DNA of 64,000 nucleotides from Thermoanaerobaculia bacterium (GTDB lineage Bacteria > Acidobacteriota > Thermoanaerobaculia > Multivoradales > UBA5704): NCBI GenBank assembly GCA_036275055.1, contig DASUEN010000171.1, positions 42,307-106,306 on the forward strand, written 5' to 3'. A program made the position numbers and the translations under genes. This document shows positions 19,136-61,188 of this stretch, piece by piece. Under the pieces are notes generated by a model. The model was not told the origin of the DNA and did no database searches. It saw only the letters and a program-made list of their open reading frames with translations. The stretch's first letter is position 1; the number at the start of each line of letters is the position of its first letter.

Positions 19136-19211
19136 TGGTGGAGCAGAAGGGATTCGAACCCTCGACCCCCACGTTGCGAACGTGGTGCTCTCCCAGCTGA
19201 GCTACTGCCCC
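19136..19211 (-). tRNA. tRNA-Ala: tRNA-Ala (anticodon CGC), CCA encoded
   Basis: The reverse complement is GGGGCAGTAGCTCAGCTGGGAGAGCACCACGTTCGCAACGTGGGGGTCGAGGGTTCGAATCCCTTCTGCTCCACCA. It is 76 nt with a cloverleaf, a G3:U70 pair, anticodon loop TTCGCAA and T-loop GGTTCGAATCC. Confidence 0.92.
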
Positions 19212-22468: not shown

Positions 22469-22486
22469 GGACCCTCATCACCCCGG

Positions 22487-22612
22487 CCCTCTTCTCCCGC
22501 CCCCTCGCCACCCCCTCACCGGGAGAAGAGGGAGCCCCCGCCCAACAGCAAAAACGGTTCGGCTGGTCCCCCTCTCCCGGTGAGGGGGGTGGCGAGGGGG
22601 CGGGAGAGGGGC
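22487..22612. repeat. GC-rich nested palindromic intergenic element (REP-like)
   Basis: CTCCCGCCCCTCGCCACCCCCTCACCGGGAG (22494-22524) faces its near-perfect reverse complement at 22573-22605. The left arm also holds its own 12-bp hairpin CCCTCTTCTCCC/GGGAGAAGAGGG. Confidence 0.8.
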
Positions 22613-28977: not shown

Positions 28978-30176
28978 GATTCCGGGTGAAGCGGGTGGAA
29001 GGCGCCCCTGTGGTGGCCGTCCGCCTCTACCTGCAGGCGGGCTCCCGGGAAGAGGTCCTTCCCGGCCAGGCCCTGGTGACCGGCCGCATGCTCACCGAAG
29101 GAACCCGCAGCCGCGACTGGCGGCGGATCGCCGAAGAGGCCGAGAGCAAGGGGATGTCCCTCGAAAGCACCGGCCATTTCGAGTCGATCGGCGTCTCCGT
29201 CGATGCCCTGGCCAAGGACTGGGAGCTGGCCCTGGAATGGGCGGTCGAGATCCTGCTCGACCCCATCTTCCCCGCCGACCGTGCGGCCTGGACGGCCCGC
29301 CAGGCCGCGGCCGAGCTGGAGAGCCTGGCGGATCAGCCGGACGTCAAGACGATGTGGGGATTCCTGGAGCAGCTCTACACGCCCCATCCCCGATGCCGCC
29401 CCACCCATGGCACCGTGGAGAGCCTCCTCAGCCTCACCCCCGGCGACTGCGCCGCGTTCCATCAGCGGTCGCAGGCGCACGGCATCGTGGCCGCCGTGGC
29501 CGGCGTGGTGGACGAGGATGCCGTGCGCGACCGCCTCATCCGTCTGCTCGGCCGTCCGGGCGTGGACGCCGAGCGCTACCCGCCGCCGTCGGCGCCTGTG
29601 GGCCTCGGCCCCCGGCACGTCGTCTCCCTCGAAGCGAGCGATCAGGCCCATCTCTACATCGGCCACCTCACCGTTCCCCGCCGCCATCCGGACTACGCGG
29701 CCCTGGAGCTGCTGGCCGTCGTCCTCGGCTCGGGCGCTGGGCTGACCGGGCGGATTCCGGCCCGTATCCGCGAGCGCGAAGGGCTCGCCTACACCGCCTT
29801 CGCGCAGACCGTCTCCGGCGCCGGCTTCGACGCCGGCCGCCTGCTGACCTACGTGGGCACCTCGGCCTCCACCGTCGAGCAGGCCGAGCGGGGCGTGGTG
29901 GAGGAGATCACCCGACTGGTGGCGGACGGCATCGAGGATTCTGAGTTGGAAGAGGCCCGCGCCTACCTCCTCGGCCGTGAGCCCTTCCGCCACGAGACCG
30001 CCCGTCAATGGGCCGACCTGCTCGTCGAAGCCGAGGAGTACGACCTCCCCTTGGACGACTTCGCGCACCGCAAGACCGAGCTCGAAGCGCTCGACCGCGC
30101 CGCCGTGGAAGCCGCCGCCCGCCGCCATCTCCATCCGGAGGCGCTGCAAGTGACGGTGGGGATGCCGGAGGCGTGA
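28974..30176 (+). CDS. M16 family peptidase, non-catalytic (no HxxEH) partner subunit
   Basis: TTG 28974 (TTGA overlap) or GTG 28986. M16 fold pattern, with no zinc motif visible. Confidence 0.8.
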   Translation: MRFRVKRVEGAPVVAVRLYLQAGSREEVLPGQALVTGRMLTEGTRSRDWRRIAEEAESKGMSLESTGHFESIGVSVDALAKDWELALEWAVEILLDPIFPADRAAWTARQAAAELESLADQPDVKTMWGFLEQLYTPHPRCRPTHGTVESLLSLTPGDCAAFHQRSQAHGIVAAVAGVVDEDAVRDRLIRLLGRPGVDAERYPPPSAPVGLGPRHVVSLEASDQAHLYIGHLTVPRRHPDYAALELLAVVLGSGAGLTGRIPARIREREGLAYTAFAQTVSGAGFDAGRLLTYVGTSASTVEQAERGVVEEITRLVADGIEDSELEEARAYLLGREPFRHETARQWADLLVEAEEYDLPLDDFAHRKTELEALDRAAVEAAARRHLHPEALQVTVGMPEA

Positions 30177-30280
30177 AGGGCGTCTCGGGGGGCGGCCTTG
30201 GAGCAAAAGGCAGCGCTGGTGAGACATTAGAGAGCCCTCATGGGACATTGCGGTGTGCTGTGGACGGGAGGAGGAGCGCC

Positions 30281-30385
30281 CCGCAATGTACCACGAACGT
30301 CCCCCAATGTGCCAAGAGCACGCCGCAATGTGCCACGGGCGCACCGCTATGTGCCCTGAGCATTCCGCAATGTTCCACGGAGGGA
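30281..30385. repeat. Five exact-phase 21-bp direct repeats with core CCGCAATGTGCCAC (iteron-like)
   Basis: Cores begin at 30281, 30302, 30323, 30344 and 30365. A further in-phase copy lies at 30428 (+63 bp) and an inverted copy ACATTGCGG at 30245-30253. Spacers between cores are not conserved. Confidence 0.85.
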
Positions 30386-30467
30386 CATCAGGTCAGGAGA
30401 GGCGCTGAGGGCTCCGGATGGAGCGCGCCGCAATGTCTCTTCGCCGCTCGCGAAGCGAGGAGAGGCG

Positions 30468-30878
30468 CTATTCCTTCGCTTCCGGGGAGGCCGAAAGCTT
30501 GCGGTAGACCGTCAGCCGCTTTCCGCTGCCTTCCTCCGCCACTCCGAGGACGCCGTCGAAGATCAGCTCACGCAGGGCGCGATGGAGAGAAGACCGTCCA
30601 GGCTCACGGTCGAGCACGCGGCAGACGTGGTTCTTGGTGAATTCCTCCGGTAGCTGGTCCATCGCCGCCTTCACCTCCCTGTAGAGCGACCAGGGTTCTT
30701 GCTTGCCGGCGGGCAGGGACGCTACGGTGGCCTCCGAGTCCTCCGGCTCGCCCTGAGCCGCCCAGAGCGCCTCCAGGGCCTGAGCCTCCGTCCGATGCGC
30801 CGCCTCCAGCAGCTCGACCCCGGCGCGCAGCCGCTCGTCGAGCTCGCGTTTGCGCTGGACGTACTCGGAATGTCTCAT
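30468..30878 (-). CDS. Hypothetical protein: N-terminal coiled coil plus C-terminal winged-helix-like segment
   Basis: 136 aa from ATG 30878: MRHSEYVQRKRELDERL...; the C-terminus NHVCRVLDREPGRSSLHRALRELIFDGVLGVAEEGSGKRLTVYRK looks wHTH-like. No family recognised. Confidence 0.5.
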   Translation of the reverse strand: MRHSEYVQRKRELDERLRAGVELLEAAHRTEAQALEALWAAQGEPEDSEATVASLPAGKQEPWSLYREVKAAMDQLPEEFTKNHVCRVLDREPGRSSLHRALRELIFDGVLGVAEEGSGKRLTVYRKLSASPEAKE

Positions 30879-31020
30879 GGGACAAAGAGTGGAACAAATA
30901 GGGGGATGGGGGCAAGGGGGGGCGCCTCTCGGAGCCGACCGCGCCTCCATCGTAGATTGGCAAGTGGAGATGCTGCCCGCGACGAGGAGGAAGGAGTAGA
31001 ATGACCGAGAGGATAAGCCC

Positions 31021-31212
31021 ATGAGCCGGAATGCTGCCAGGAACTATCGGAAAGAGATGCCAGGTCCTAACGACGCGACCTCTCCCACGCGCGTTGCGGA
31101 CGATTCGAAGGAGATCAGGCGCAGGCAACTCGCCGAGGTTTTGAGCCAGCAGGGAAAGATTGATTTGGATATCGACCCAGAGAGGCTCGTTCAGCTTCGC
31201 TCCGCTCAATGA
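31021..31212 (+). CDS. VapB-like antitoxin remnant (C-terminal toxin-binding tail recognisable, N-terminus atypical)
   Basis: 63 aa. The C-terminus GKIDLDIDPERLVQLRSAQ resembles the W/x-GDLDxMR tail of VapB antitoxins. An ATGA overlap joins it to the PIN fragment. Confidence 0.4.
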   Translation: MSRNAARNYRKEMPGPNDATSPTRVADDSKEIRRRQLAEVLSQQGKIDLDIDPERLVQLRSAQ

Positions 31213-31295
31213 TCCTCGTCGACAGCTCCGCGCTCATCGAGTACTACAGACCTTCCGGCTCAGCGGGGACTCGCACTGCTGTGGCGGCGGCTTAG
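31209..31295 (+). pseudogene. vapC: Truncated vapC (PIN toxin), N-terminal 28 codons only
   Basis: MILVDSSALIEYYRPSGSAGTRTAVAAA* carries the canonical PIN N-terminus (ILVDSS). It ends at TAG 31293-31295, exactly where GC content drops. Confidence 0.6.
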
Positions 31296-31296
31296 G

Positions 31297-31623
31297 CTAT
31301 CTCCTAGAGGCAACCCGCTGCAGAACCTTCCCGATTTTCTCCAAAGCCTGCCCGATCTCGCCTAGTAACAGGCGATCCTCTCCGGTAAAGACCTGTTGAG
31401 TGATAATGAGCGGTTCTTTGCGGGGTCTCCCTTTCCTTGCCAATCCTTCCTCCCGGAGCTTGAGGAAGACTGGTATGGCTTCCGGAGGATAGCGGCGTTT
31501 TCGTCCCTCTCCCTGGCAGGGGATGCGAGCCGCGTATTGACTAGCGTATTTTGAAAGAGTTGTAGCGTTGATGCCGGTCTTTTCGGCAATCTCTGTCAGC
31601 GTAAGCAACGTGTCCGATTGCAT
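31297..31623 (-). CDS. MerR/excisionase-type helix-turn-helix DNA-binding protein
   Basis: ATG 31623 follows AGGAG. LLTLTEIAEKTGINATTLSKYASQY...RKRRYPPEAIPVFLKLRE is a MerR-like HTH followed by a wing. Confidence 0.7.
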   Translation of the reverse strand: MQSDTLLTLTEIAEKTGINATTLSKYASQYAARIPCQGEGRKRRYPPEAIPVFLKLREEGLARKGRPRKEPLIITQQVFTGEDRLLLGEIGQALEKIGKVLQRVASRR

Positions 31624-31640
31624 GGCGTTCTCTCCTAACT

Positions 31641-32996
31641 TCACAAAGAGGGTGTCCCACCTTCAAATTTCACCCCACAAGGTCGGGGTATCCAGGTTGC
31701 TCTTAGATGAGATGAGATGACTTTTGGATAGTCATTTGTAAGGAAGGTGCCATCGGCGACAGCATTCACCAAAGACGCCCAAAGTTGTAGGCTATCTCTT
31801 GTAAGCCCCCATTCGCCCAACTGTCGACCTACTTTCTTGGCTAACGAGATCGCCTCATGAGACTCCTGAAGCAGCAGGCGGACTTGTATGCGGTCTATTG
31901 CCAGCAGCGTAGCATCGAAATACAGATGGGCTTGCATGTAGGTATTGGCAGCATTGTCAAGGAATCTCTTGGCGTACTGATACGCTTGATTTGCAAGAGC
32001 GATCCGACCTCTCAGCCAAAGATAATCCCCGGTAATTTGTGGATCAGAATGGCGAGCATATAAATAAGTGTAGGTCTCAACTATGGAACCTGCTTCTTCC
32101 ACCTCTCCCAAGCTCAGGTAGCAACGGGCTAGGGTATGGCGTGCTGATAACTCCGCAATGTCAAGCTTTCCTTCTTTGTCAATCTGAATTAGGACCGCTA
32201 GCCCCTCTTCCGCGATTTCGATAGCGTGGGCTGGATCAACGTGAGTCACGATATACGCCTGTTGAATGAGCGTAAGGGCGACACCTTTGAGATCTCCCAC
32301 TTTGCGAAACATAGATATAACTCGGGTTAGCAGGGCTGCTCCCTCCAAGAAGAGTCCAATGGCGTATAGCAAGTTTGCGGTATTGACTCCTAACATAGCG
32401 TCCTCAAGCATGTCGCCCGAACCGTGCGTCAGTTCACGCCGTGCCAACTCCAAGGCTTCTGCCGCTCCCGTCAAGTCTCCTGCGCGAGTTTTTACCATTC
32501 CAACATTAGAGAACGCCTGTCCTCTGCAATCATGCACCAATCCGGGTCCGTATTGGTCTTCAGGTAACCTGAGTGCTATTTCTAAGGCTAGCTCGGCTAG
32601 GTCTACGCCATATAGAACATCCACTCGGCAAGCGATCCGTACCAATTTCGTAACGTGCGCGAAGAATTCGATGGTCTGGAGAAGGGGATTTCCTCGTACG
32701 ACCTGGAGGCGAAACGGGTGTTCAGATTCTTTTAGCCAGTCCCACAACTCAGCGGCCTTGCCCTTCTGCTCTTCGCGCTCGATCTGAGCGAGCTGCGCAG
32801 CAAATGATGCACGAGAGAAAGCCCGATCGTAACTGCTTGTGAGATAAGCATCCCTAAAGGACTGAAGCACCGCTCCGCATCGTTGGCATTGGGTCAAGAG
32901 GTGAGCCACCACGGACTGGCACTCCTCCCTATTGTTTAGGGAGCCGGCAAGGAACAGAGATAGGGACTCGACAGAGGGGTGGTCCGTACGCGGCAT
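31641..32996 (-). CDS. Soluble protein with N-terminal anti-sigma-type zinc finger (zf-HC2/ZAS-like) and a ~380-aa TPR-like helical repeat domain
   Basis: 451 aa with an AGGAG RBS. The N-terminus SLSLFLAGSLNNREECQSVVAHLLTQCQRCGAVL follows the anti-sigma zinc-finger pattern (H-x4-C-x2-C here). No TM segment. Repeated helical hairpins run throughout. Confidence 0.75.
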   Translation of the reverse strand: MPRTDHPSVESLSLFLAGSLNNREECQSVVAHLLTQCQRCGAVLQSFRDAYLTSSYDRAFSRASFAAQLAQIEREEQKGKAAELWDWLKESEHPFRLQVVRGNPLLQTIEFFAHVTKLVRIACRVDVLYGVDLAELALEIALRLPEDQYGPGLVHDCRGQAFSNVGMVKTRAGDLTGAAEALELARRELTHGSGDMLEDAMLGVNTANLLYAIGLFLEGAALLTRVISMFRKVGDLKGVALTLIQQAYIVTHVDPAHAIEIAEEGLAVLIQIDKEGKLDIAELSARHTLARCYLSLGEVEEAGSIVETYTYLYARHSDPQITGDYLWLRGRIALANQAYQYAKRFLDNAANTYMQAHLYFDATLLAIDRIQVRLLLQESHEAISLAKKVGRQLGEWGLTRDSLQLWASLVNAVADGTFLTNDYPKVISSHLRATWIPRPCGVKFEGGTPSL

Positions 32997-33052
32997 GAGA
33001 ATAGGCTCCTATTGGGTAATTCGCCGCAGTATACTTCATTCTTGTCAAGAAA

Positions 33053-33076
33053 GCCCCAGGTACTTTCCCCTGGGGC
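33053..33076 (-). terminator. Hairpin with short U-tract between the peptide gene and the ZAS-TPR gene (partial terminator)
   Basis: The minus strand reads GCCCCAGG-GGAAAGTA-CCTGGGGC followed by TTTCTTGAC, 15 nt after the peptide gene stop. Confidence 0.5.
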
Positions 33077-33090
33077 CGGAGACTTGGCCA

Positions 33091-33384
33091 CTAGCTGTGG
33101 GTGCATCCCCAAGGGTCAATCGATCCCCTGATATCGCAGGTCGGTGAGTCCTGTTGAGATGAGATGGAGGCAGTCCCGCATAGCCCCCACGGATCAATGC
33201 TACCCCGTAGGCAGGTTGCCTCAGTGAGCTTGACCAGTACGGAGGTAAGACGGTCCCATGCTGAGATTGCAGTAGGACGGGCTGCCGCCCCCCTTCCCCC
33301 TCTTGGCTTCTGGGCTTCCAACGGGCTACAGAGGGTCAAAGACAGGGCTAAGGCGCCGAGAGCAAAGGCTATGCGCTTCCTCAT
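33091..33384 (-). CDS. Small secreted peptide precursor with two Cys-bracketed RGSIDPWG repeats
   Basis: 97 aa with a GGAAGGA RBS. Signal peptide MRKRIAFALGALALSLTLCSPLEA|Q. Mature part contains TCLRGSIDPWGLC and TCDIRGSIDPWGC. Confidence 0.6.
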   Translation of the reverse strand: MRKRIAFALGALALSLTLCSPLEAQKPRGGRGAAARPTAISAWDRLTSVLVKLTEATCLRGSIDPWGLCGTASISSQQDSPTCDIRGSIDPWGCTHS

Positions 33385-33799
33385 GGGTGCATCCTTCCGA
33401 GGGGGCGGACTTACCTAACCCGGAATGGGATAGGAGTTAGGGCATTCCCCTCCATTTGGACAGTGAGGAAGCTACTCCGTTGGGGCGACATAGGGATAAT
33501 CTCTAAACGTCACAACCTACATGGTTTATCGCGCTAAAACATCGGGCTGCTTGTTTTAACGGGCAGCTTTGAGTCTGGTTCCGTGCTGTCGGAGAGGAAC
33601 AAGATTTCGAGGGGAAGACACCTTGACGCGGCTGGAGGGCGGCTGGGAAAAGAGGGCCGAGGTGATGAGGGTCTTGGGGAGGTGGAAAGCCGGCTGGGAG
33701 CAGACGCCCGGCAGACGGTGCGGCGGGAAGGGAACCATCCCGAGCACATCCCCCAGCGTTCCCTGCTACTCTTGAGGACATCCTGATTTCGAGGTCCGG

Positions 33800-34432
33800 A
33801 TGTCCGACGCTGACGCAGCCATTCAGGCGATCGTCGCCGATCTCCAGGCGGGGCGGGCCGTCGAGGAGGGCTTTCGTCTCCTCTGCGAGCGCTTTCACCG
33901 CCCGGTGTACAGGTTCTTCGCCCGGCGCGGCTTCCCCGAGGCCGACTGCTTCGACCTAACCCAGGAGACATTCCTTGGGATCTATAGGGGGATCGGGTCG
34001 TTCCGGCGCGATGCCCCGTTCACGACCTGGCTGTTCAAGGTGGCGACCAATGCCTACCGCAAGCGTCTGCGCCTGCAGGGCGCGGGAAAGCGGGCCGGCT
34101 ACGAGGTCCCCTTGAGCTCCCAGCCTGAGGAAGAGGACGATCGCCCCGCCTTCCAGCCCGTGGCGCCGGGTCCTCTTCCCGAGGCCTCACTGCTTCAGGC
34201 CGAGCGCGCCCGGCTGCTGCGCGAGGCCGTCCACGAGTTGCCGGACCAGATGCGGAAGTGCTTGATCTTGAACGTTTACCATGAGCTCAAGATGAGGGAG
34301 ATCGGCCAATTGCTCCACCTGTCGCCCGAGACGGTGAAGGTCCACCTCTTCCAGGCGCGGCGGCGGCTGCACAAGGCACTGGGCCCCCTCTTCGCGAGCT
34401 CCATGCCGGACGGAGGCGAGGCATCGTCATGA
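33800..34432 (+). CDS. ECF (group 4) RNA polymerase sigma factor
   Basis: Region 2 is FDLTQETFLGIY...TWLFKVATN. Region 4 is DQMRKCLILNVYHELKMREIGQLLHLSPETVKVHLFQARRRL. Confidence 0.9.
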   Translation: MSDADAAIQAIVADLQAGRAVEEGFRLLCERFHRPVYRFFARRGFPEADCFDLTQETFLGIYRGIGSFRRDAPFTTWLFKVATNAYRKRLRLQGAGKRAGYEVPLSSQPEEEDDRPAFQPVAPGPLPEASLLQAERARLLREAVHELPDQMRKCLILNVYHELKMREIGQLLHLSPETVKVHLFQARRRLHKALGPLFASSMPDGGEASS

Positions 34433-35238
34433 GCGATCAAGAGCCCGAGATCCGCCAGGCCGTGGAGGAGTGGACGGCCGAGACCGGCGGGGCCGGCGAG
34501 GGCGGCGGCGAGCACCCCGACGCGGAAACGCTGGCCGCCTACCATACCCGCGAGCTGCCGCCCGCGGCGGAGCAGCGCATCCAGGATCACCTCCTGCTCT
34601 GCCGCGAGTGCGCCGGGTTGCTGCTCGACCTCGAAGAGCTGGACGACCCGGATTTCGGCCGCGAGATCGAGGTTCCCGCGGGCACGGGAGAGGCCCTCTG
34701 GGACGGCCTGCGGCAGGAGATCACCCGCAAGGAGCCGGCGCCACCGGCGGCTGCGGTGATCCCGTTCCCCTCCCGCCCGCGCCCGGCTCCGCCGCTCTGG
34801 ATCTCCTCCCTGGTCGCCGCCCTCGTGGTGGCCGTGATCGGCCTCTCCGTCTGGGTCGCGTCGCTGCGCCGGACCGTGGGGGAGCTGTCCCGGCCGGAGG
34901 TCAACTCCACGGTGCTGGACCTCGTCCCCCGCGGCATCGGGCAGCGGGAAGGGGGGGAGGTACCGGCCGCCGTGGTGCCGTCCGGCTCCCGCATGGTCAC
35001 GCTCATCCTGAGCCCTGCCCGGCGTGGGGATTTCCAGGATTACGAAGCGGAGATCGCGCGCGCCGCCGGCGGGGCGGTGTGGCGGGAGCGGGGGCTGCGG
35101 CCGAACGACTACGGCTCGTTCAGCCTGACCCTGCCGCGCCGGGCCCTCGGCACCGGCGAGCACCGGCTCCGCCTGTTCGGCATCCGGAATGGCGCCCGGG
35201 AGGTCCTCGGCGAGTATGCGTTGCGGCTCGCGCCCTGA
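34429..35238 (+). CDS. Zinc-finger (ZAS, H-x3-C-x2-C) transmembrane anti-sigma factor
   Basis: ATGA overlap with the sigma gene. HLLLCRECAGLL motif; single TM LWISSLVAALVVAVIGLSVWVA; extracytoplasmic domain of about 125 aa. Confidence 0.8.
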   Translation: MSDQEPEIRQAVEEWTAETGGAGEGGGEHPDAETLAAYHTRELPPAAEQRIQDHLLLCRECAGLLLDLEELDDPDFGREIEVPAGTGEALWDGLRQEITRKEPAPPAAAVIPFPSRPRPAPPLWISSLVAALVVAVIGLSVWVASLRRTVGELSRPEVNSTVLDLVPRGIGQREGGEVPAAVVPSGSRMVTLILSPARRGDFQDYEAEIARAAGGAVWRERGLRPNDYGSFSLTLPRRALGTGEHRLRLFGIRNGAREVLGEYALRLAP

Positions 35239-38188
35239 GACGGCGGCGCTCCTGGCTGCCGCTCTCCTGCTCGCCGGCTGCGAGCGGTCGCCGCCGGTGC
35301 ACAAGCCGGCGGCGGGTTCCCCCGCGCCGCGCGTCGCTCCAGCCCGCCCTGCCGCCGCCCGGCTCCTTCGCCTCGCTCCGGGAGTCCTCGACGAAGTCGT
35401 GCTGAAGGGCGGCGAGGAAAGCGCCTATCTCCTCGATCTCGCTACGGGTCAGTACGCTGGCCTGGTGGTCGATCAGCAGGGGATCGACGTGGAGGTGAGG
35501 CTGCGGGCGCCCGGCGGGAAGATCGTGGCCGCCGTCGACAGCCTCAACGGCATGATCGGGCCTGAGCCCCTGCCGTTCGTGGCCGAGACCGGCGGACGCT
35601 TCCGGCTGGAGATCGGGTCGTCCTCTCGTGGAGCACCAGCCGGCCGCTACGTCCTGCGTCTCGAAGCCTTGCGCCCGGCGACCGCGCGAGACCGCGCCCT
35701 GGTGGAGGCCGAGCGGGAGCTGGCGGAAGGGGAACGGCTCTACCAAGCGGGCACTCCCGCGTCTCTTCAGGCGGCCCTGGCGCGCGAGAAAGAGGTCCTC
35801 GCTCGCTTCCGCGTTCTCGGCCTGCCTGCACGAGAGGCCGAAGCTCTGTTCAGTCTGGGAAGTATCCACGAGAAACTGGACGCGGGGGAGGCTGCCGCCA
35901 GTGACTTCCGGCAGGCCCTGGAGATCTTCAGCGGCCTGGGGGACGAGGCGCGGGCGGGGGTCACACTCGGCAATCTCGGTACGTTGGAGCGCGCTCAAAG
36001 CGGCCGGCGGGCACTCACCTTACTTCGCCAGGCACTCCCTTTGCTCCGCCGGTCCCACAACCGGCTGGAAGAGGCCGCGACCCTGAGCAACATTGGTAAG
36101 GCTGCCATGGAGGTTGGCGAAACCGGCGAGGCCCTCGCGGCTTTCGAGCAGGCGATCTCTCTTGAGCGCTCCCTGGGCGATCGAGCCGACGAGGGGAAAT
36201 TGTTGCTCAATCTCGGTTTATTGGAGACCGACCTGGGCCAGACGTCACGGGCTCTCGATCACCTCGGCCAGGCCGTGGCACTGCTGCAGGCCGCCGGGGA
36301 TCGCCGCGGGCTGGGCGTGGCCCTGGCCCGGACGGGGATGGCTCTTGCGGACGGCGGCCACCCCCGTGGAGAGGTCGTGGCGGCTTTTCAGCGCGCCCTC
36401 CGGCTCCAGCGCGAAATTGGAGACCGGCGCCGGGAAGCCGTGACACTCACCAATCTGGGCTGGTACTACCATCAGCAAGGAGAGATCCGGCAGGCGGAAC
36501 AGATTTTCCGTGAGACGCTCGCCATCTTCCAGGCCCGTGGCGATCGCGGCGAGGAGGCCGGAGCCCTCGTCAACCTGGGCGGTATCGATCTGGAGCGCGG
36601 GCGTCTCGCTGAGGCCGAGAAGTCCTTTCTGCGAGCGCAGGCTCTCTTCACCGAGATCGGTGATCCTGAGGAAGAGGCCACCGCCCTGTTTTTCTTGGCA
36701 CGGGTTCGGCGCGCCGAAGGGCAGCTTGTGGCGGCCTTCACCGCCATCGAAAGCGCTGCCGCCCGCATCGAGGCGCTCCGCAGCAAACCGCCCAGCCCGG
36801 ACCTGCGCCTCACGTTCTTCGCCTCCAAACAGGATATTTATGGGCTCCGCGTCGATCTCCTGATGGAGCTTCACCAGGACGCGCAGGCTCTGATGGCCAG
36901 CGAGGAGGCGCGGGCACGCACGCTCCTCGACCTCCTGGACAAGGTGGACGTCCAGCCGGCGGGCTCCGGCACTCTACTGACCTCCCGGGAGATCCAACGG
37001 CAGGTCGTGGAGAAAGGCACGCTCCTCCTCGAATACTCCCTGGGAAAGGAGCGCAGCTTCCTGTGGGCCGTGACGCCGGAGTCGCTGGAGAGCTTCGAGC
37101 TTCCCTCACGAAAAGTGCTGGAAGAGGAAGCCCGCAACGCCGCGTTCCTCCTGGCGTCCAGCGGCCGGACCCTCGCGCGTGCGCAGACCGACCTGGCTCT
37201 GGCCGGCCTTTCCCGCCGGCTGCTCGGGCCGGCGGCTCACCGGCTGCGCGCAGCGGACCGGCTGGTGGTCGTCCCGGACGGTGCGCTCTGGGCCGTCTCC
37301 TTCGCAGCCCTGCCGGACCCCGACACTGGCGCGCCGCTCATCGCCGGCCATGAGATCGTCTCCCTCCCCTCGGCCTCGGTGCTGCCCCGGCTGCGCGCCG
37401 CCGCTGCGGGGCGGCACCCGGCAGCCGGCGCGGTCGCCGTGGTGGCCGATCCCGTCTTCAGCGCCAACGATCCGCGGGTGACGCCCCCTCCAGGGGTGCC
37501 CACGGCGGCTCCCGAGCCCCGAGGCGGCCCTGTGGCACCTTTCGCAAGGCTGCCCTTCTCCCGCGCCGAAGCGCAGGCGATCCTTTCCGTGGCTCCTCGC
37601 GAGGGGACGCTCGCAGCCCTCGACTTCGCGGCGAGCCGCGAAACCGTCCTCAGCGGCCGCCTGGCCCGGTACCGGATCGTCCACTTCGCGACCCATGCCC
37701 TCCTGAATACCGAAAACCCCGAGCTTTCGGGAGTCATGCTCTCGCAGGTCGACCCCCACGGCCGCCCGCGCGACGGTTTCCTACGGCTCGACGACGTCTA
37801 CCGGCTGAACCTTGCCGCGGACCTGGTGGTGCTTTCCGCCTGCCGGACGGCGCTCGGCCGGGAAATCCGCGGCGAGGGTCTGGTCGGCCTCACCCGGGGC
37901 TTCTTCTCGGCCGGCGCCCGCCAGGTCCTGGTCAGTCTCTGGCCGGTGGAGGACCGCGCCACCGCCGAGCTCATGCAGCGCTTCTATCTCGAGATGCTCG
38001 GCCGGGGGCGTCCGCCCGCCGCCGCTCTCCGGGAGGCGCAGATCGCGATGTGGAGAGACGAGAGCCGGCGGCCGGCCTATTACTGGGCGGGATTCACCCT
38101 CCAGGGGGATTGGCACACGGCGGATAAACCATTTTCCCCGAAGCGGATCTCTAAACCCTCCATACGGCGAACCCAATCCGGAGGATGA
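35216..38188 (+). CDS. Lipoprotein with N-terminal beta domain, TPR array and C-terminal CHAT (caspase-like) protease domain
   Basis: Lipobox LLLAGC (alternative start 35189). At least six TPR-like units (xLxNLG motifs). CHAT catalytic dyad context: IVHFATHA (His) and LVVLSACRTALG (Cys). It overlaps the anti-sigma gene by 23 nt. Confidence 0.9.
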   Translation: MRCGSRPETAALLAAALLLAGCERSPPVHKPAAGSPAPRVAPARPAAARLLRLAPGVLDEVVLKGGEESAYLLDLATGQYAGLVVDQQGIDVEVRLRAPGGKIVAAVDSLNGMIGPEPLPFVAETGGRFRLEIGSSSRGAPAGRYVLRLEALRPATARDRALVEAERELAEGERLYQAGTPASLQAALAREKEVLARFRVLGLPAREAEALFSLGSIHEKLDAGEAAASDFRQALEIFSGLGDEARAGVTLGNLGTLERAQSGRRALTLLRQALPLLRRSHNRLEEAATLSNIGKAAMEVGETGEALAAFEQAISLERSLGDRADEGKLLLNLGLLETDLGQTSRALDHLGQAVALLQAAGDRRGLGVALARTGMALADGGHPRGEVVAAFQRALRLQREIGDRRREAVTLTNLGWYYHQQGEIRQAEQIFRETLAIFQARGDRGEEAGALVNLGGIDLERGRLAEAEKSFLRAQALFTEIGDPEEEATALFFLARVRRAEGQLVAAFTAIESAAARIEALRSKPPSPDLRLTFFASKQDIYGLRVDLLMELHQDAQALMASEEARARTLLDLLDKVDVQPAGSGTLLTSREIQRQVVEKGTLLLEYSLGKERSFLWAVTPESLESFELPSRKVLEEEARNAAFLLASSGRTLARAQTDLALAGLSRRLLGPAAHRLRAADRLVVVPDGALWAVSFAALPDPDTGAPLIAGHEIVSLPSASVLPRLRAAAAGRHPAAGAVAVVADPVFSANDPRVTPPPGVPTAAPEPRGGPVAPFARLPFSRAEAQAILSVAPREGTLAALDFAASRETVLSGRLARYRIVHFATHALLNTENPELSGVMLSQVDPHGRPRDGFLRLDDVYRLNLAADLVVLSACRTALGREIRGEGLVGLTRGFFSAGARQVLVSLWPVEDRATAELMQRFYLEMLGRGRPPAAALREAQIAMWRDESRRPAYYWAGFTLQGDWHTADKPFSPKRISKPSIRRTQSGG

Positions 38189-60488: not shown

Positions 60489-60872
60489 ATGGCTCGGTTC
60501 CCGACGACCACGGAAAAGCCCCTCCATTGGGTCGGCGCGTCAAAGAAGGACTTGCTGACGTTTCCTGGCGATGTGGTGGACGACTTCGGATATGCCCTGA
60601 GCGTCGTCCAGCATGGCGGTACGCCACCTTCTGCCAAGATGTGGAAGGGTGAAGGCCCGGGAGTCTTCGAGCTGGTCGAAGAGTATCGTGGCGATGCGTT
60701 CAGGGCCGTCTACACGGTGCGCTTTGAGAAGGCGGTTTATGTCCTGCACTGCTTCCAGAAGAAATCGCCCTCAGGAATGCGCACGGCTAAACAGGATATC
60801 GACCTGATCCATGAGCGCCTGAGAACGGCACAAGCAGACTATGAGGTGCGCTATGCGAGAAAAGAAGACTGA
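60489..60872 (+). CDS. RelE/ParE-superfamily toxin of the phage Gp49-like (DUF891) type
   Basis: KPLHWVGASKKDLLTFPGDVVDDFGYAL...GVFELVEEYRGDAFRAVYTVRFEKAVYVLHCFQKKS is the family hallmark. Confidence 0.8.
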   Translation: MARFPTTTEKPLHWVGASKKDLLTFPGDVVDDFGYALSVVQHGGTPPSAKMWKGEGPGVFELVEEYRGDAFRAVYTVRFEKAVYVLHCFQKKSPSGMRTAKQDIDLIHERLRTAQADYEVRYARKED

Positions 60873-61188
60873 GACGGTGGATGCTGGGAGCGGTGACGTT
60901 CTGGTGGATCTTGGTTTCCCGGATGCTGACGAGAGGAAGCTGCGTGTACAGCTAGCGATGCAGCTCAACGAGCTGATCGCAGCCTGCCGTTTGACGCAGG
61001 CCCGCGCGGCAAAGCTTTTCGGCATTCCGCAGCCCCATGTCTCGGAGCTCAAGCACTACAAGCTTAACCGGTTCTCCTCCGAACGATTGCTGCATTTCGT
61101 CACTCTCCTCGATCGTGACATCGAAATCATCATCCGGCCGAAGGCCAAGGGGCACGCATCGGGAGTCGTATTTGTGTCGGTCGCCTGA
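60853..61188 (+). CDS. XRE-family HTH antitoxin partner
   Basis: VLVDLGFPDADERKLRVQLAMQLNELIAACRLTQARAAKLFGIPQPHVSELKHYKLNRFSSERLLHFVTLL. It overlaps the toxin 3' end. Confidence 0.8.
   Translation: MREKKTETVDAGSGDVLVDLGFPDADERKLRVQLAMQLNELIAACRLTQARAAKLFGIPQPHVSELKHYKLNRFSSERLLHFVTLLDRDIEIIIRPKAKGHASGVVFVSVA

Follow-up and report, generated by a model that had tools for sequence, protein, structure and literature searches.

A stretch of 64,000 nucleotides (nt) from a Thermoanaerobaculia bacterium (assembly GCA_036275055.1, contig DASUEN010000171.1, positions 42,307 to 106,306 of the forward strand; the whole stretch is called the window below) was found to carry a three-gene cassette, the first gene of which, an open reading frame (ORF) of 97 amino acids (aa), is a real gene under purifying selection. 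Its product belongs to a large family of DPxG-repeat peptides encoded beside one family of cytoplasmic tetratricopeptide repeat (TPR) proteins in soil Acidobacteriota and other high-GC soil bacteria; the pairing is family-wide and holds across very deep divergence, down to 22–30% identity of the TPR proteins. The cassette is read here, with about even confidence, as a Rap-Phr-like peptide signalling module outside Firmicutes, of which the 97-aa ORF would be the exported propeptide. The ORF and its parts, with strand and basis of the call, are as follows (dN/dS, ratio of nonsynonymous to synonymous substitution rates):

33091..33384, (-): putative propeptide gene, 97 aa; orthologues, dN/dS
33313..33384, (-): predicted Sec signal peptide, aa 1–24; sequence inspection, equivalent N-termini across the peptide family
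33217..33267, (-): pro-region helix ISAWDRLTSVLVKLTEA with the family-wide [FL]xx[LA]-W-xx-[LF]; peptide-family alignment, Trp nearly universal
33178..33213, (-): repeat and loop 1, C58-L-RGSIDPWG-L-C69, C-x10-C; translation
33103..33138, (-): repeat and loop 2, C83-DI-RGSIDPWG-C94, C-x10-C; translation

The full peptide (ORF 33384..33091 on the minus strand) is MRKRIAFALGALALSLTLCSPLEA/QKPRGGRGAAARPTAISAWDRLTSVLVKLTEAT-CLRGSIDPWGLC-GTASISSQQDSPT-CDIRGSIDPWGC-THS, the chain continuing with QKP... after the slash, which marks the predicted cleavage point; the Shine-Dalgarno (SD) sequence GGAAGGA lies 7–8 nt 5' of the ATG. The predicted signal, called by inspection and a simple filter like all export signals reported here, consists of a basic N-terminus, a hydrophobic core and an L-E-A (AxA-like) cleavage site. 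The reverse complement of 33103..33213 is translated as T-C-L-RGSIDPWG-L-C ... T-C-DI-RGSIDPWG-C-THS and stop; the RGSIDPWG copies are encoded by CGG GGT AGC ATT GAT CCG TGG GGG and AGG GGA TCG ATT GAC CCT TGG GGA, respectively. Six of the eight codons differ, all synonymously (six of the seven able to vary, Trp having a single codon), and the synonymous proportion between the copies (pS) is 0.97, i.e., saturated. No DNA-level repeat behind the two copies was detected by Tandem Repeats Finder. The pattern [IMVLY]DP[NDWHSY]G had a single further occurrence among the 111,625 remaining residues of the six-frame translation of the window; since this motif class is almost absent from the rest of the translation, the duplication is far beyond chance. 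No match to the peptide was obtained with Pfam, NCBIfam, PHROGs and PADLOC models.

The homologue search covered 5.8 billion proteins and returned three database homologues of the peptide, 67–86% identical and with both loops kept; remoter orthologues were found beside related TPR genes in Thermoanaerobaculia metagenome-assembled genomes (MAGs), which were also the closest genome matches, one cluster member being named Acidobacteriota by NCBI. All seven orthologues (7/7) carry two motif copies, and the duplication therefore predates their divergence. The spacing C-x10-C is kept in 13 of their 14 loops; loop 1 of the window lineage has C-x1-RG...-x1-C instead of C-x2-RG...-C, the motif being shifted by one residue and the ring size unchanged. 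Pairwise dN/dS over the whole peptide gene was 0.16–0.60 among the orthologues, mostly 0.2–0.4. The initial annotation had described two recoded copies of the octapeptide in a 97-aa ORF, had taken the ORF for a real gene and had placed the motif under purifying selection. The two copies were borne out, with identical protein and six of eight codons synonymously different; the other two claims stand as well: the protein search returned homologues that keep the motif, dN/dS is well below 1, and the motif is kept in orthologues despite saturated synonymous change.

The linkage to TPR genes was examined in 48 metagenome loci of another subfamily (25–30% identical to the window protein) together with single look-up loci; 44 were usable, and the small ORFs beside the TPR gene were scanned. 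An ORF with the strict motif was found at most 1.1 kb from the TPR gene in 33 of the 44 loci, and with the relaxed motif in about 38 of 44; elsewhere in the same loci the background was 5 motifs in 421,100 translated residues (~1e-5 per residue). Later look-ups of intermediate family members were positive in both cases (2/2), giving the C-termini ...SD-C-RSTIDPWG-C-PED (L062) and ...GDAGGVLDPWG (L063), each directly before the stop codon; in a further family member a 93-aa gene stands directly upstream of the TPR gene. No curated family for the DPxG peptides was found, and nothing relevant was returned by full-text literature searches on the motif strings, on RRNPP outside Firmicutes, or on the combination of anti-sigma factor, TPR and secreted peptide. 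Viral contigs held no relatives of either TPR subfamily, and thus nothing points to an arbitrium-like origin on a phage. Assignment to a known defence system was tried with PADLOC and PHROGs and dropped, only generic helix-turn-helix (HTH) or TPR matches being obtained.

The peptides are 36–120 aa long and share an N-terminal export-type signal, the helix [FL]xx[LA]-W-xx-[LF] and one to four C-terminal units D-x-[GR]-x-x-[IMLV]-D-P-x-G, joined by hypervariable, low-complexity linkers of Gly, Pro, Ser and Ala. The stop codon follows exactly after the last DPxG Gly in 18 of 36 peptides; loop 2 of the window peptide fits this terminal unit and lies four residues before the stop. Between P and G most clades have N or D; W is found in the window clade and the relatives closest to it, and elsewhere the position is taken by S, H, F, Y or A. 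Cys residues flank the unit in several unrelated clades (spacings outside the window lineage are C-x7-C, C-x8-C and C-x11-C) and are absent from most; disulfide loops would therefore be specific to lineages and not the essence of the family. The Cys-flanked octapeptide, which the initial annotation had regarded as the conserved unit, was accordingly not retained, the unit of the family being the wider one given above; of the two loops that it had predicted from the Cys pairs, the C-x10-C spacing proved conserved in the window lineage, and the Cys residues are missing from most family members.

The minimal members of 36–40 aa (L035, L038, L040, L053; encoded upstream of the TPR gene) consist of the Trp helix and one unit only: MLRT[LI]W..[LF]..L[FL] is followed, after a short spacer, by a single DLGHx[IMV]DP[ND]G unit with the stop codon directly behind it. 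A signal peptide distinct from the Trp helix is lacking, and the helix itself may therefore serve as the export signal. In L048 (1084–1877) one TPR gene is preceded by a tandem pair of paralogous peptide genes with three G[GS][TD]IDP[ND]G-RPVPP repeats in each. A peptide gene identical to P0002 was seen in L007 (1638–1928), where it had been missed by the source gene caller; DPxG peptide genes are therefore likely under-annotated.

The partner encoded downstream of the peptide gene is the following:

31641..32996, (-): 451-aa cytoplasmic zinc-finger and TPR protein; profile search, alignment, AlphaFold2 model

An exhaustive HMMER search gave 1,326 cluster representatives at E<1e-3 (365 at E<1e-10), nearly all of 430–460 aa and matched end to end; with few exceptions, uncultured soil bacteria are the source of these representatives, which were clustered at 50% identity. 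H6, H32, C37 and C40 are invariant among 34 diverse aligned members, and the zinc pattern H6...H32-x4-C37-x2-C40 (x3 in P0009) spans helices 1–3. Pfam recognised only TPR repeats in this family; weak matches to the NCBIfam NsdA family (NF053720) were obtained for 17 of the 34 members (best 6e-14), the window protein itself being unmatched, and the RRNPPA-specific Pfam and NCBIfam models gave no match with the family. The N-terminal 45 residues were aligned by hhalign to the zf-HC2 domain of the anti-sigma factor encoded in the window itself with E 2.5e-4 and a probability of 43%; Pfam zf-HC2 (PF13490) was found below threshold (E 0.035–0.13) in 4 of 10 N-termini. Neither a signal peptide nor a transmembrane segment is present, the sole hydrophobic 19-mer being a TPR helix.

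The AlphaFold2 model (predicted local distance difference test, pLDDT, 90.5; predicted TM-score, pTM, 0.81) is an all-helical superhelix. Foldseek against the PDB returned peptide-binding TPR superhelices, and the best by TM-score and root-mean-square deviation were pheromone-bound Rap (8rsu, TMt 0.61; RapF 4i9c, 0.60; 8rtc) and NprR; the Myxococcus anti-sigma factor DdvA was also among the matches. The family profile matches RapJ (1.8e-6), Rap105 (1e-5) and NprR (1.7e-4) as well. Relatives in which an XRE-type HTH precedes the TPR domain were retrieved by the profile searches (P0161–P0166; L013, L031, L034, L042), and their C-terminal 360 residues were aligned with the TPR domain of the family at an hhalign probability of 100% (E 3e-50, 362 columns); the shared domain indicates one sensor domain joined to two alternative N-terminal output modules. 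Cys-flanked DPxG peptides are encoded alongside in L013, L034 and L042; that of L013 has three G-C-G-[LI]-DP-[NSD]-G-x-C units, the first of which is followed by ...LCGTAS, identical to the window.

The cassette as a whole, its third gene and its non-coding elements are as follows:

31296..33628, (-): whole cassette (peptide, zinc-finger and TPR protein, MerR-like HTH protein); nucleotide homology and GC content
31297..31644, (-): small DNA-binding protein with a winged HTH of MerR/excisionase type; domain matches, orthologues
33385..33628, (-): conserved non-coding leader; nucleotide homology across related loci
33532..33561, (.): palindrome CGTTAAAACA-N10-TGTTTTAGCG, candidate operator; both arms kept in orthologous leaders
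33385..33478, (-): candidate structured 5' untranslated region (UTR); pairing and compensatory changes
33053..33076, (-): terminator-like hairpin CCCCAGG...CCUGGGG followed by CUUUCUU between the peptide and TPR genes; position conserved

The three genes of the 2.33-kb cassette are co-oriented with the peptide gene first (33384..33091, 32996..31641, 31644..31297), the peptide stop lying 94 nt upstream of the TPR-protein start, and the GC content is 50–57% vs 67–75% in the flanks. The trio was found in every orthologous locus (L001, L004–L007, L009–L011), the block standing in different gene neighbourhoods in L001, L004/5, L006/7 and L010. Nucleotide homology to related loci starts sharply at 33628 (CGTCAAGGTGTC), 244 nt 5' of the ATG, and extends to the stop codon of the HTH gene, 31296; no terminal direct or inverted repeats of at least 8 nt and no recombinase were found at these borders, and no tRNA gene near the cassette (the sole one in the window is at 19136–19211). 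Within the block the TPR alleles are only 40–46% identical (window vs L005, L009, L010, L011), and the flanking peptide and HTH genes are 70–94% identical; L005 combines a window-like peptide gene, leader and HTH gene with a TPR gene of the L009 type (81%). These incongruent relationships imply recombinational swapping of the TPR gene, independent of the flanking genes.

A dispersed intergenic element of ~70 nt, composed of a 12-bp hairpin CTCCCTCTTCTCCC...GGGAGAAGAGGG followed by CCGGGGTGATGAGGGTC and without an Rfam match, was observed in the window (33641–33675, 22470–22498) and in other loci (L016 423–457; L023 3289–3319; L001 7080–7114; L005 549–574). In the copy adjoining the cassette the 5' arm is missing, cut off precisely at the border 33628, and the element was also seen near the upstream side of the cassette in L001 and L004/L005.

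The 244-nt leader is conserved more strongly than the coding sequence, and the palindrome CGTTAAAACA-N10-TGTTTTAGCG occurs once in the window. In the last ~95 nt of the leader an invariant GC(G/U)UCCUCA block pairs with the SD GGAAGGA and would sequester it from the peptide gene; 90.5% of cells were paired vs 42–60% in slid controls, with five compensatory pairs among seven sequences (modest covariation). The folding energy is ordinary for the composition (z = -0.52), which weakens the candidate. A perfect 9-nt pairing of 33464–33472 with the start codon was set aside in favour of the anti-SD/SD pairing, being lost where the N-terminal codons differ. An ECF-type GGAAC-N16-CGTT (ECF, extracytoplasmic function) in the leader (33577–33601, minus strand) was rejected as a conserved promoter, neither sequence nor spacing being kept in orthologues.

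The hairpin 3' of the peptide gene, for which a different hairpin stands at the equivalent position in L005, suggests that the peptide transcript exceeds the TPR transcript. Between the peptide and TPR genes (32997–33052, minus strand) the hexamers TTGACA and TATACT are invariant among the window, L007 and L001; with only 9 nt between them, they do not make up a standard sigma-70 promoter. A sigma-70 promoter scan of 30900–33900 gave no site, and Rfam gave no match in 30000–35000 at E<=1. Among RNA sequencing runs, none was found to contain the locus.

The HTH protein has an AT-hook-like KGRPRK and a coiled-coil-like C-terminal helix, and is 70–94% identical among orthologues; its start is either the GTG at 31644 overlapping the TPR stop (115 aa) or, as in the orthologues, the ATG at 31623 (108 aa). 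A kinship with the neighbouring ECF sigma factor was considered and rejected, no meaningful BLASTP similarity being found. That sigma factor is encoded divergently from the cassette in an apparent operon (33800–38188, plus strand) of ECF sigma, zf-HC2 anti-sigma and a 999-aa TPR-CHAT protein, which does not accompany the cassette in other genomes; no sigma gene was found within the window cassette or its orthologues, the divergent one (33800–34432) having its own anti-sigma factor. In L014–L016 an ECF-type sigma gene stands immediately before the zinc-finger and TPR gene, and two further sigma paralogues come after it, i.e., the classical sigma/anti-sigma order; these clusters were seen at L014 1017–4704, L015 1957–5043 and L016 1945–4964, with a DPNG peptide gene only in L014 (598–909, upstream). 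Adjacent small genes matching Gp49 (HigB-like toxin) and HTH_37 (HigA-like antitoxin), a probable toxin-antitoxin pair, were noted elsewhere in the window (60489–61188, plus strand).

A scheme of the Rap-Phr/RRNPPA type is proposed for the cassette because an exported-type propeptide with C-terminal, sometimes multiple, units is combined with an adjacent cytoplasmic TPR protein, with HTH-TPR relatives and with a separate transcription-factor partner. According to it, the propeptide would be exported by Sec, and the two C-x10-C DPWG hairpin units would be freed by extracellular or periplasmic proteolysis, in the window lineage perhaps as disulfide-closed peptides. The freed DPWG peptide would re-enter the cell and dock in the concave groove of the TPR superhelix, and docking might alter the hold of the anti-sigma-like zinc finger on a transcription factor; the partner held would likely be the co-transcribed MerR-like HTH protein and, in other clades, the adjacent ECF sigma factor. 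Action of the HTH protein at the leader palindrome would make the whole an autoregulated switch dependent on density or diffusion. A broader statement, to which we give somewhat less than even confidence, is that the DPxG peptides and their zinc-finger-TPR or HTH-TPR partners may be peptide-pheromone systems that act through cytoplasmic receptors and are widespread among Acidobacteriota and further Gram-negative bacteria of soil, functionally RRNPPA-like, with an anti-sigma-like zinc finger whose bound partner would be a sigma factor or a small HTH protein, and that they would be the first such systems outside Firmicutes.

Several observations weigh against this scheme. LGN/Pins was the best Foldseek match by E-value, and the family profile scores generic TPR proteins (LGN, 1e-13) better than RRNPPA receptors. 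The peptide core is near-constant while the TPR gene diverges to 40–46% and its alleles are exchanged independently, unlike the co-diversification of pherotypes. It is problematic that a disulfide-closed peptide must cross two membranes and meet a reducing cytoplasm, and no Opp-type importer was found in the 64-kb window. The conserved Trp helix of the pro-region is not explained by signalling and is without a counterpart in RRNPPA propeptides.

The unexplained amphipathic Trp helix is one of the points in favour of a small folded or membrane-associated envelope protein (structural, metal-binding or protease-related), in which the helix would be an anchor, the DPxG units would be Asx-Pro turns, and the regulators would sense other cues, e.g., envelope stress; the 25–90 residues that follow the last motif in several peptides (L030, L031, L048a) and the ECF sigma/anti-sigma/CHAT operon adjacent in the window would also agree with it. 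We consider such a protein unlikely: in half of the peptides nothing follows the last DPxG, only short units are conserved between low-complexity, hypervariable linkers, the variants of 36–40 aa are the helix and one unit only, and the adjacent ECF and CHAT genes are not conserved with the cassette. A slightly lower probability is given to a secreted bioactive product, i.e., a bacteriocin-like or disulfide-constrained hairpin, or a multi-core RiPP (ribosomally synthesised and post-translationally modified peptide) with unlinked enzymes, whose production alone would be regulated by the TPR and HTH proteins. Repeated core-like units after a leader-like conserved helix, the C-x10-C loops conserved in the window lineage, and weak NCBIfam matches to peptide-pathway TPR proteins (HaaT in 6/34 members, FxSxx_TPR in 3/34) and to the NsdA regulator (17/34) are consistent with it, as is a radical SAM gene 2 kb from the pair in L012 (8313–9779) and L062 (5816–6934). 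The two loci are unrelated, such a gene was not seen in the others, and its position could be coincidence. Against a bioactive product stand the lack of any modifying enzyme, transporter or immunity gene conserved beside the pair in ~45 loci, the Sec-type signals, which are unusual among RiPP precursors, the absence of Cys from most family members, and the fact that the only consistently linked gene encodes a cytoplasmic TPR protein of peptide-binding type. The lack of linked modifying enzymes argues in particular against a classical multi-core RiPP; of the roles suggested in the initial annotation, that of a multi-core precursor of this kind is thus disfavoured, and signalling, by a propeptide with several copies of the unit, is the one that the genomic context supports best.

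A use of the propeptide as a reporter of export or extracellular proteolysis is closer to the proposed signalling scheme: it would be a bait cut by proteases of the cell itself or of competitors, and the signal would be private and self-sensed, not a measure of cell density. The genetic architecture would be the same, and the invariant DPxG core with little pherotype diversification fits a generic sensor of cleavage products better than strain-specific communication; this variant shares, on the other hand, all the inferred steps of the favoured Rap-Phr-like reading, and is regarded as quite improbable. That the ORF is spurious, a chance repeat in non-coding or antisense sequence, is refuted: nothing speaks for it except small size and lack of annotation, as against orthologues with dN/dS well below 1, a motif kept despite saturated synonymous change, a good ribosome-binding site with a predicted signal peptide, and family-wide linkage compared with the background of ~1e-5 per residue.

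Whatever the function, the peptide family and its strict TPR linkage are undescribed and provide a rule for finding small secreted peptide genes overlooked by gene callers. If the signalling reading is true, the family of 1,326 representatives would extend peptide signalling through cytoplasmic TPR receptors to diderm Acidobacteriota and would give a function to hundreds of small "hypothetical" ORFs; it would add a receptor output of a new kind, in which sigma factors or small HTH proteins are the targets of an anti-sigma-like zinc finger, and a short, almost invariant and chemically distinctive signal core (Asx-Pro turn, D-P-x-G) that can be synthesised.

Peptide signalling via cytoplasmic TPR receptors of the RRNPPA family is treated as a matter of Firmicutes, including their phages and plasmids (PMC10075063, PMC9765709), and tandemly duplicated pheromones within one propeptide were shown experimentally in the phage Rap-Phr systems of phi3T and phi105 (PMC11343458). 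The cassette is like Rap-Phr in that a small propeptide gene (Sec-exported; here predicted to be so) stands next to a gene for a cytoplasmic TPR protein that is not DNA-binding and has an N-terminal helical effector module, in that the active unit would be at or near the C-terminus and may be multi-copy (PMC11343458), and in that the best TM-score matches of the model are Rap-pheromone complexes. It is unlike Rap-Phr in coming not from Firmicutes but from Acidobacteriota (Thermoanaerobaculia MAGs) and further soil bacteria of high GC content; in its N-terminal module, an H/H/C/C anti-sigma-like zinc finger and not the Rap 3-helix bundle or an HTH; and in a DPxG core that is nearly invariant vs hypervariable, a conserved Trp helix and, in the window lineage, Cys-flanked loops. 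With PlcR-PapR, NprR-NprX, Rgg-SHP and AimR-AimP the relatives P0161–P0166 (L013, L031, L034, L042) share an XRE-type HTH and TPR protein encoded beside a small predicted-exported repeat peptide; unlike PlcR, NprR, Rgg and AimR, the window protein has no HTH and is followed by a separate MerR-like HTH gene, and the peptides are longer (36–120 aa) and multi-copy.

The N-terminal H...H-x(3-4)-C-x2-C resembles that of zinc-binding anti-sigma (ZAS) factors (zf-HC2; RsrA, ChrR, DdvA), and in L014–L016 the gene follows an ECF-type sigma gene as theirs does; unlike them, the window cassette has no sigma gene, the protein has no transmembrane segment, zf-HC2 is below threshold, and a cytoplasmic TPR array is linked to an exported-type peptide. 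The Streptomyces NsdA family (NF053720) is similar as a soluble TPR-like regulator without a DNA-binding domain; to our knowledge, no zinc finger or linked peptide has been described for NsdA. Multi-core RiPP precursors (cyanobactins, graspetides) likewise have a leader-like segment followed by short conserved cores and variable linkers, whereas the DPxG loci are without linked maturases, proteases and exporters, the signal is of the Sec type, and the linked gene encodes a regulator. The system is not assigned to RRNPPA by sequence and is not RRNPPA by taxon or N-terminal domain, nor is it a canonical ZAS anti-sigma system; its novelty lies in the peptide family, the DPxG core, the proposed zinc-finger output and the phylum, and among known systems the cassette would work most like Rap-Phr.

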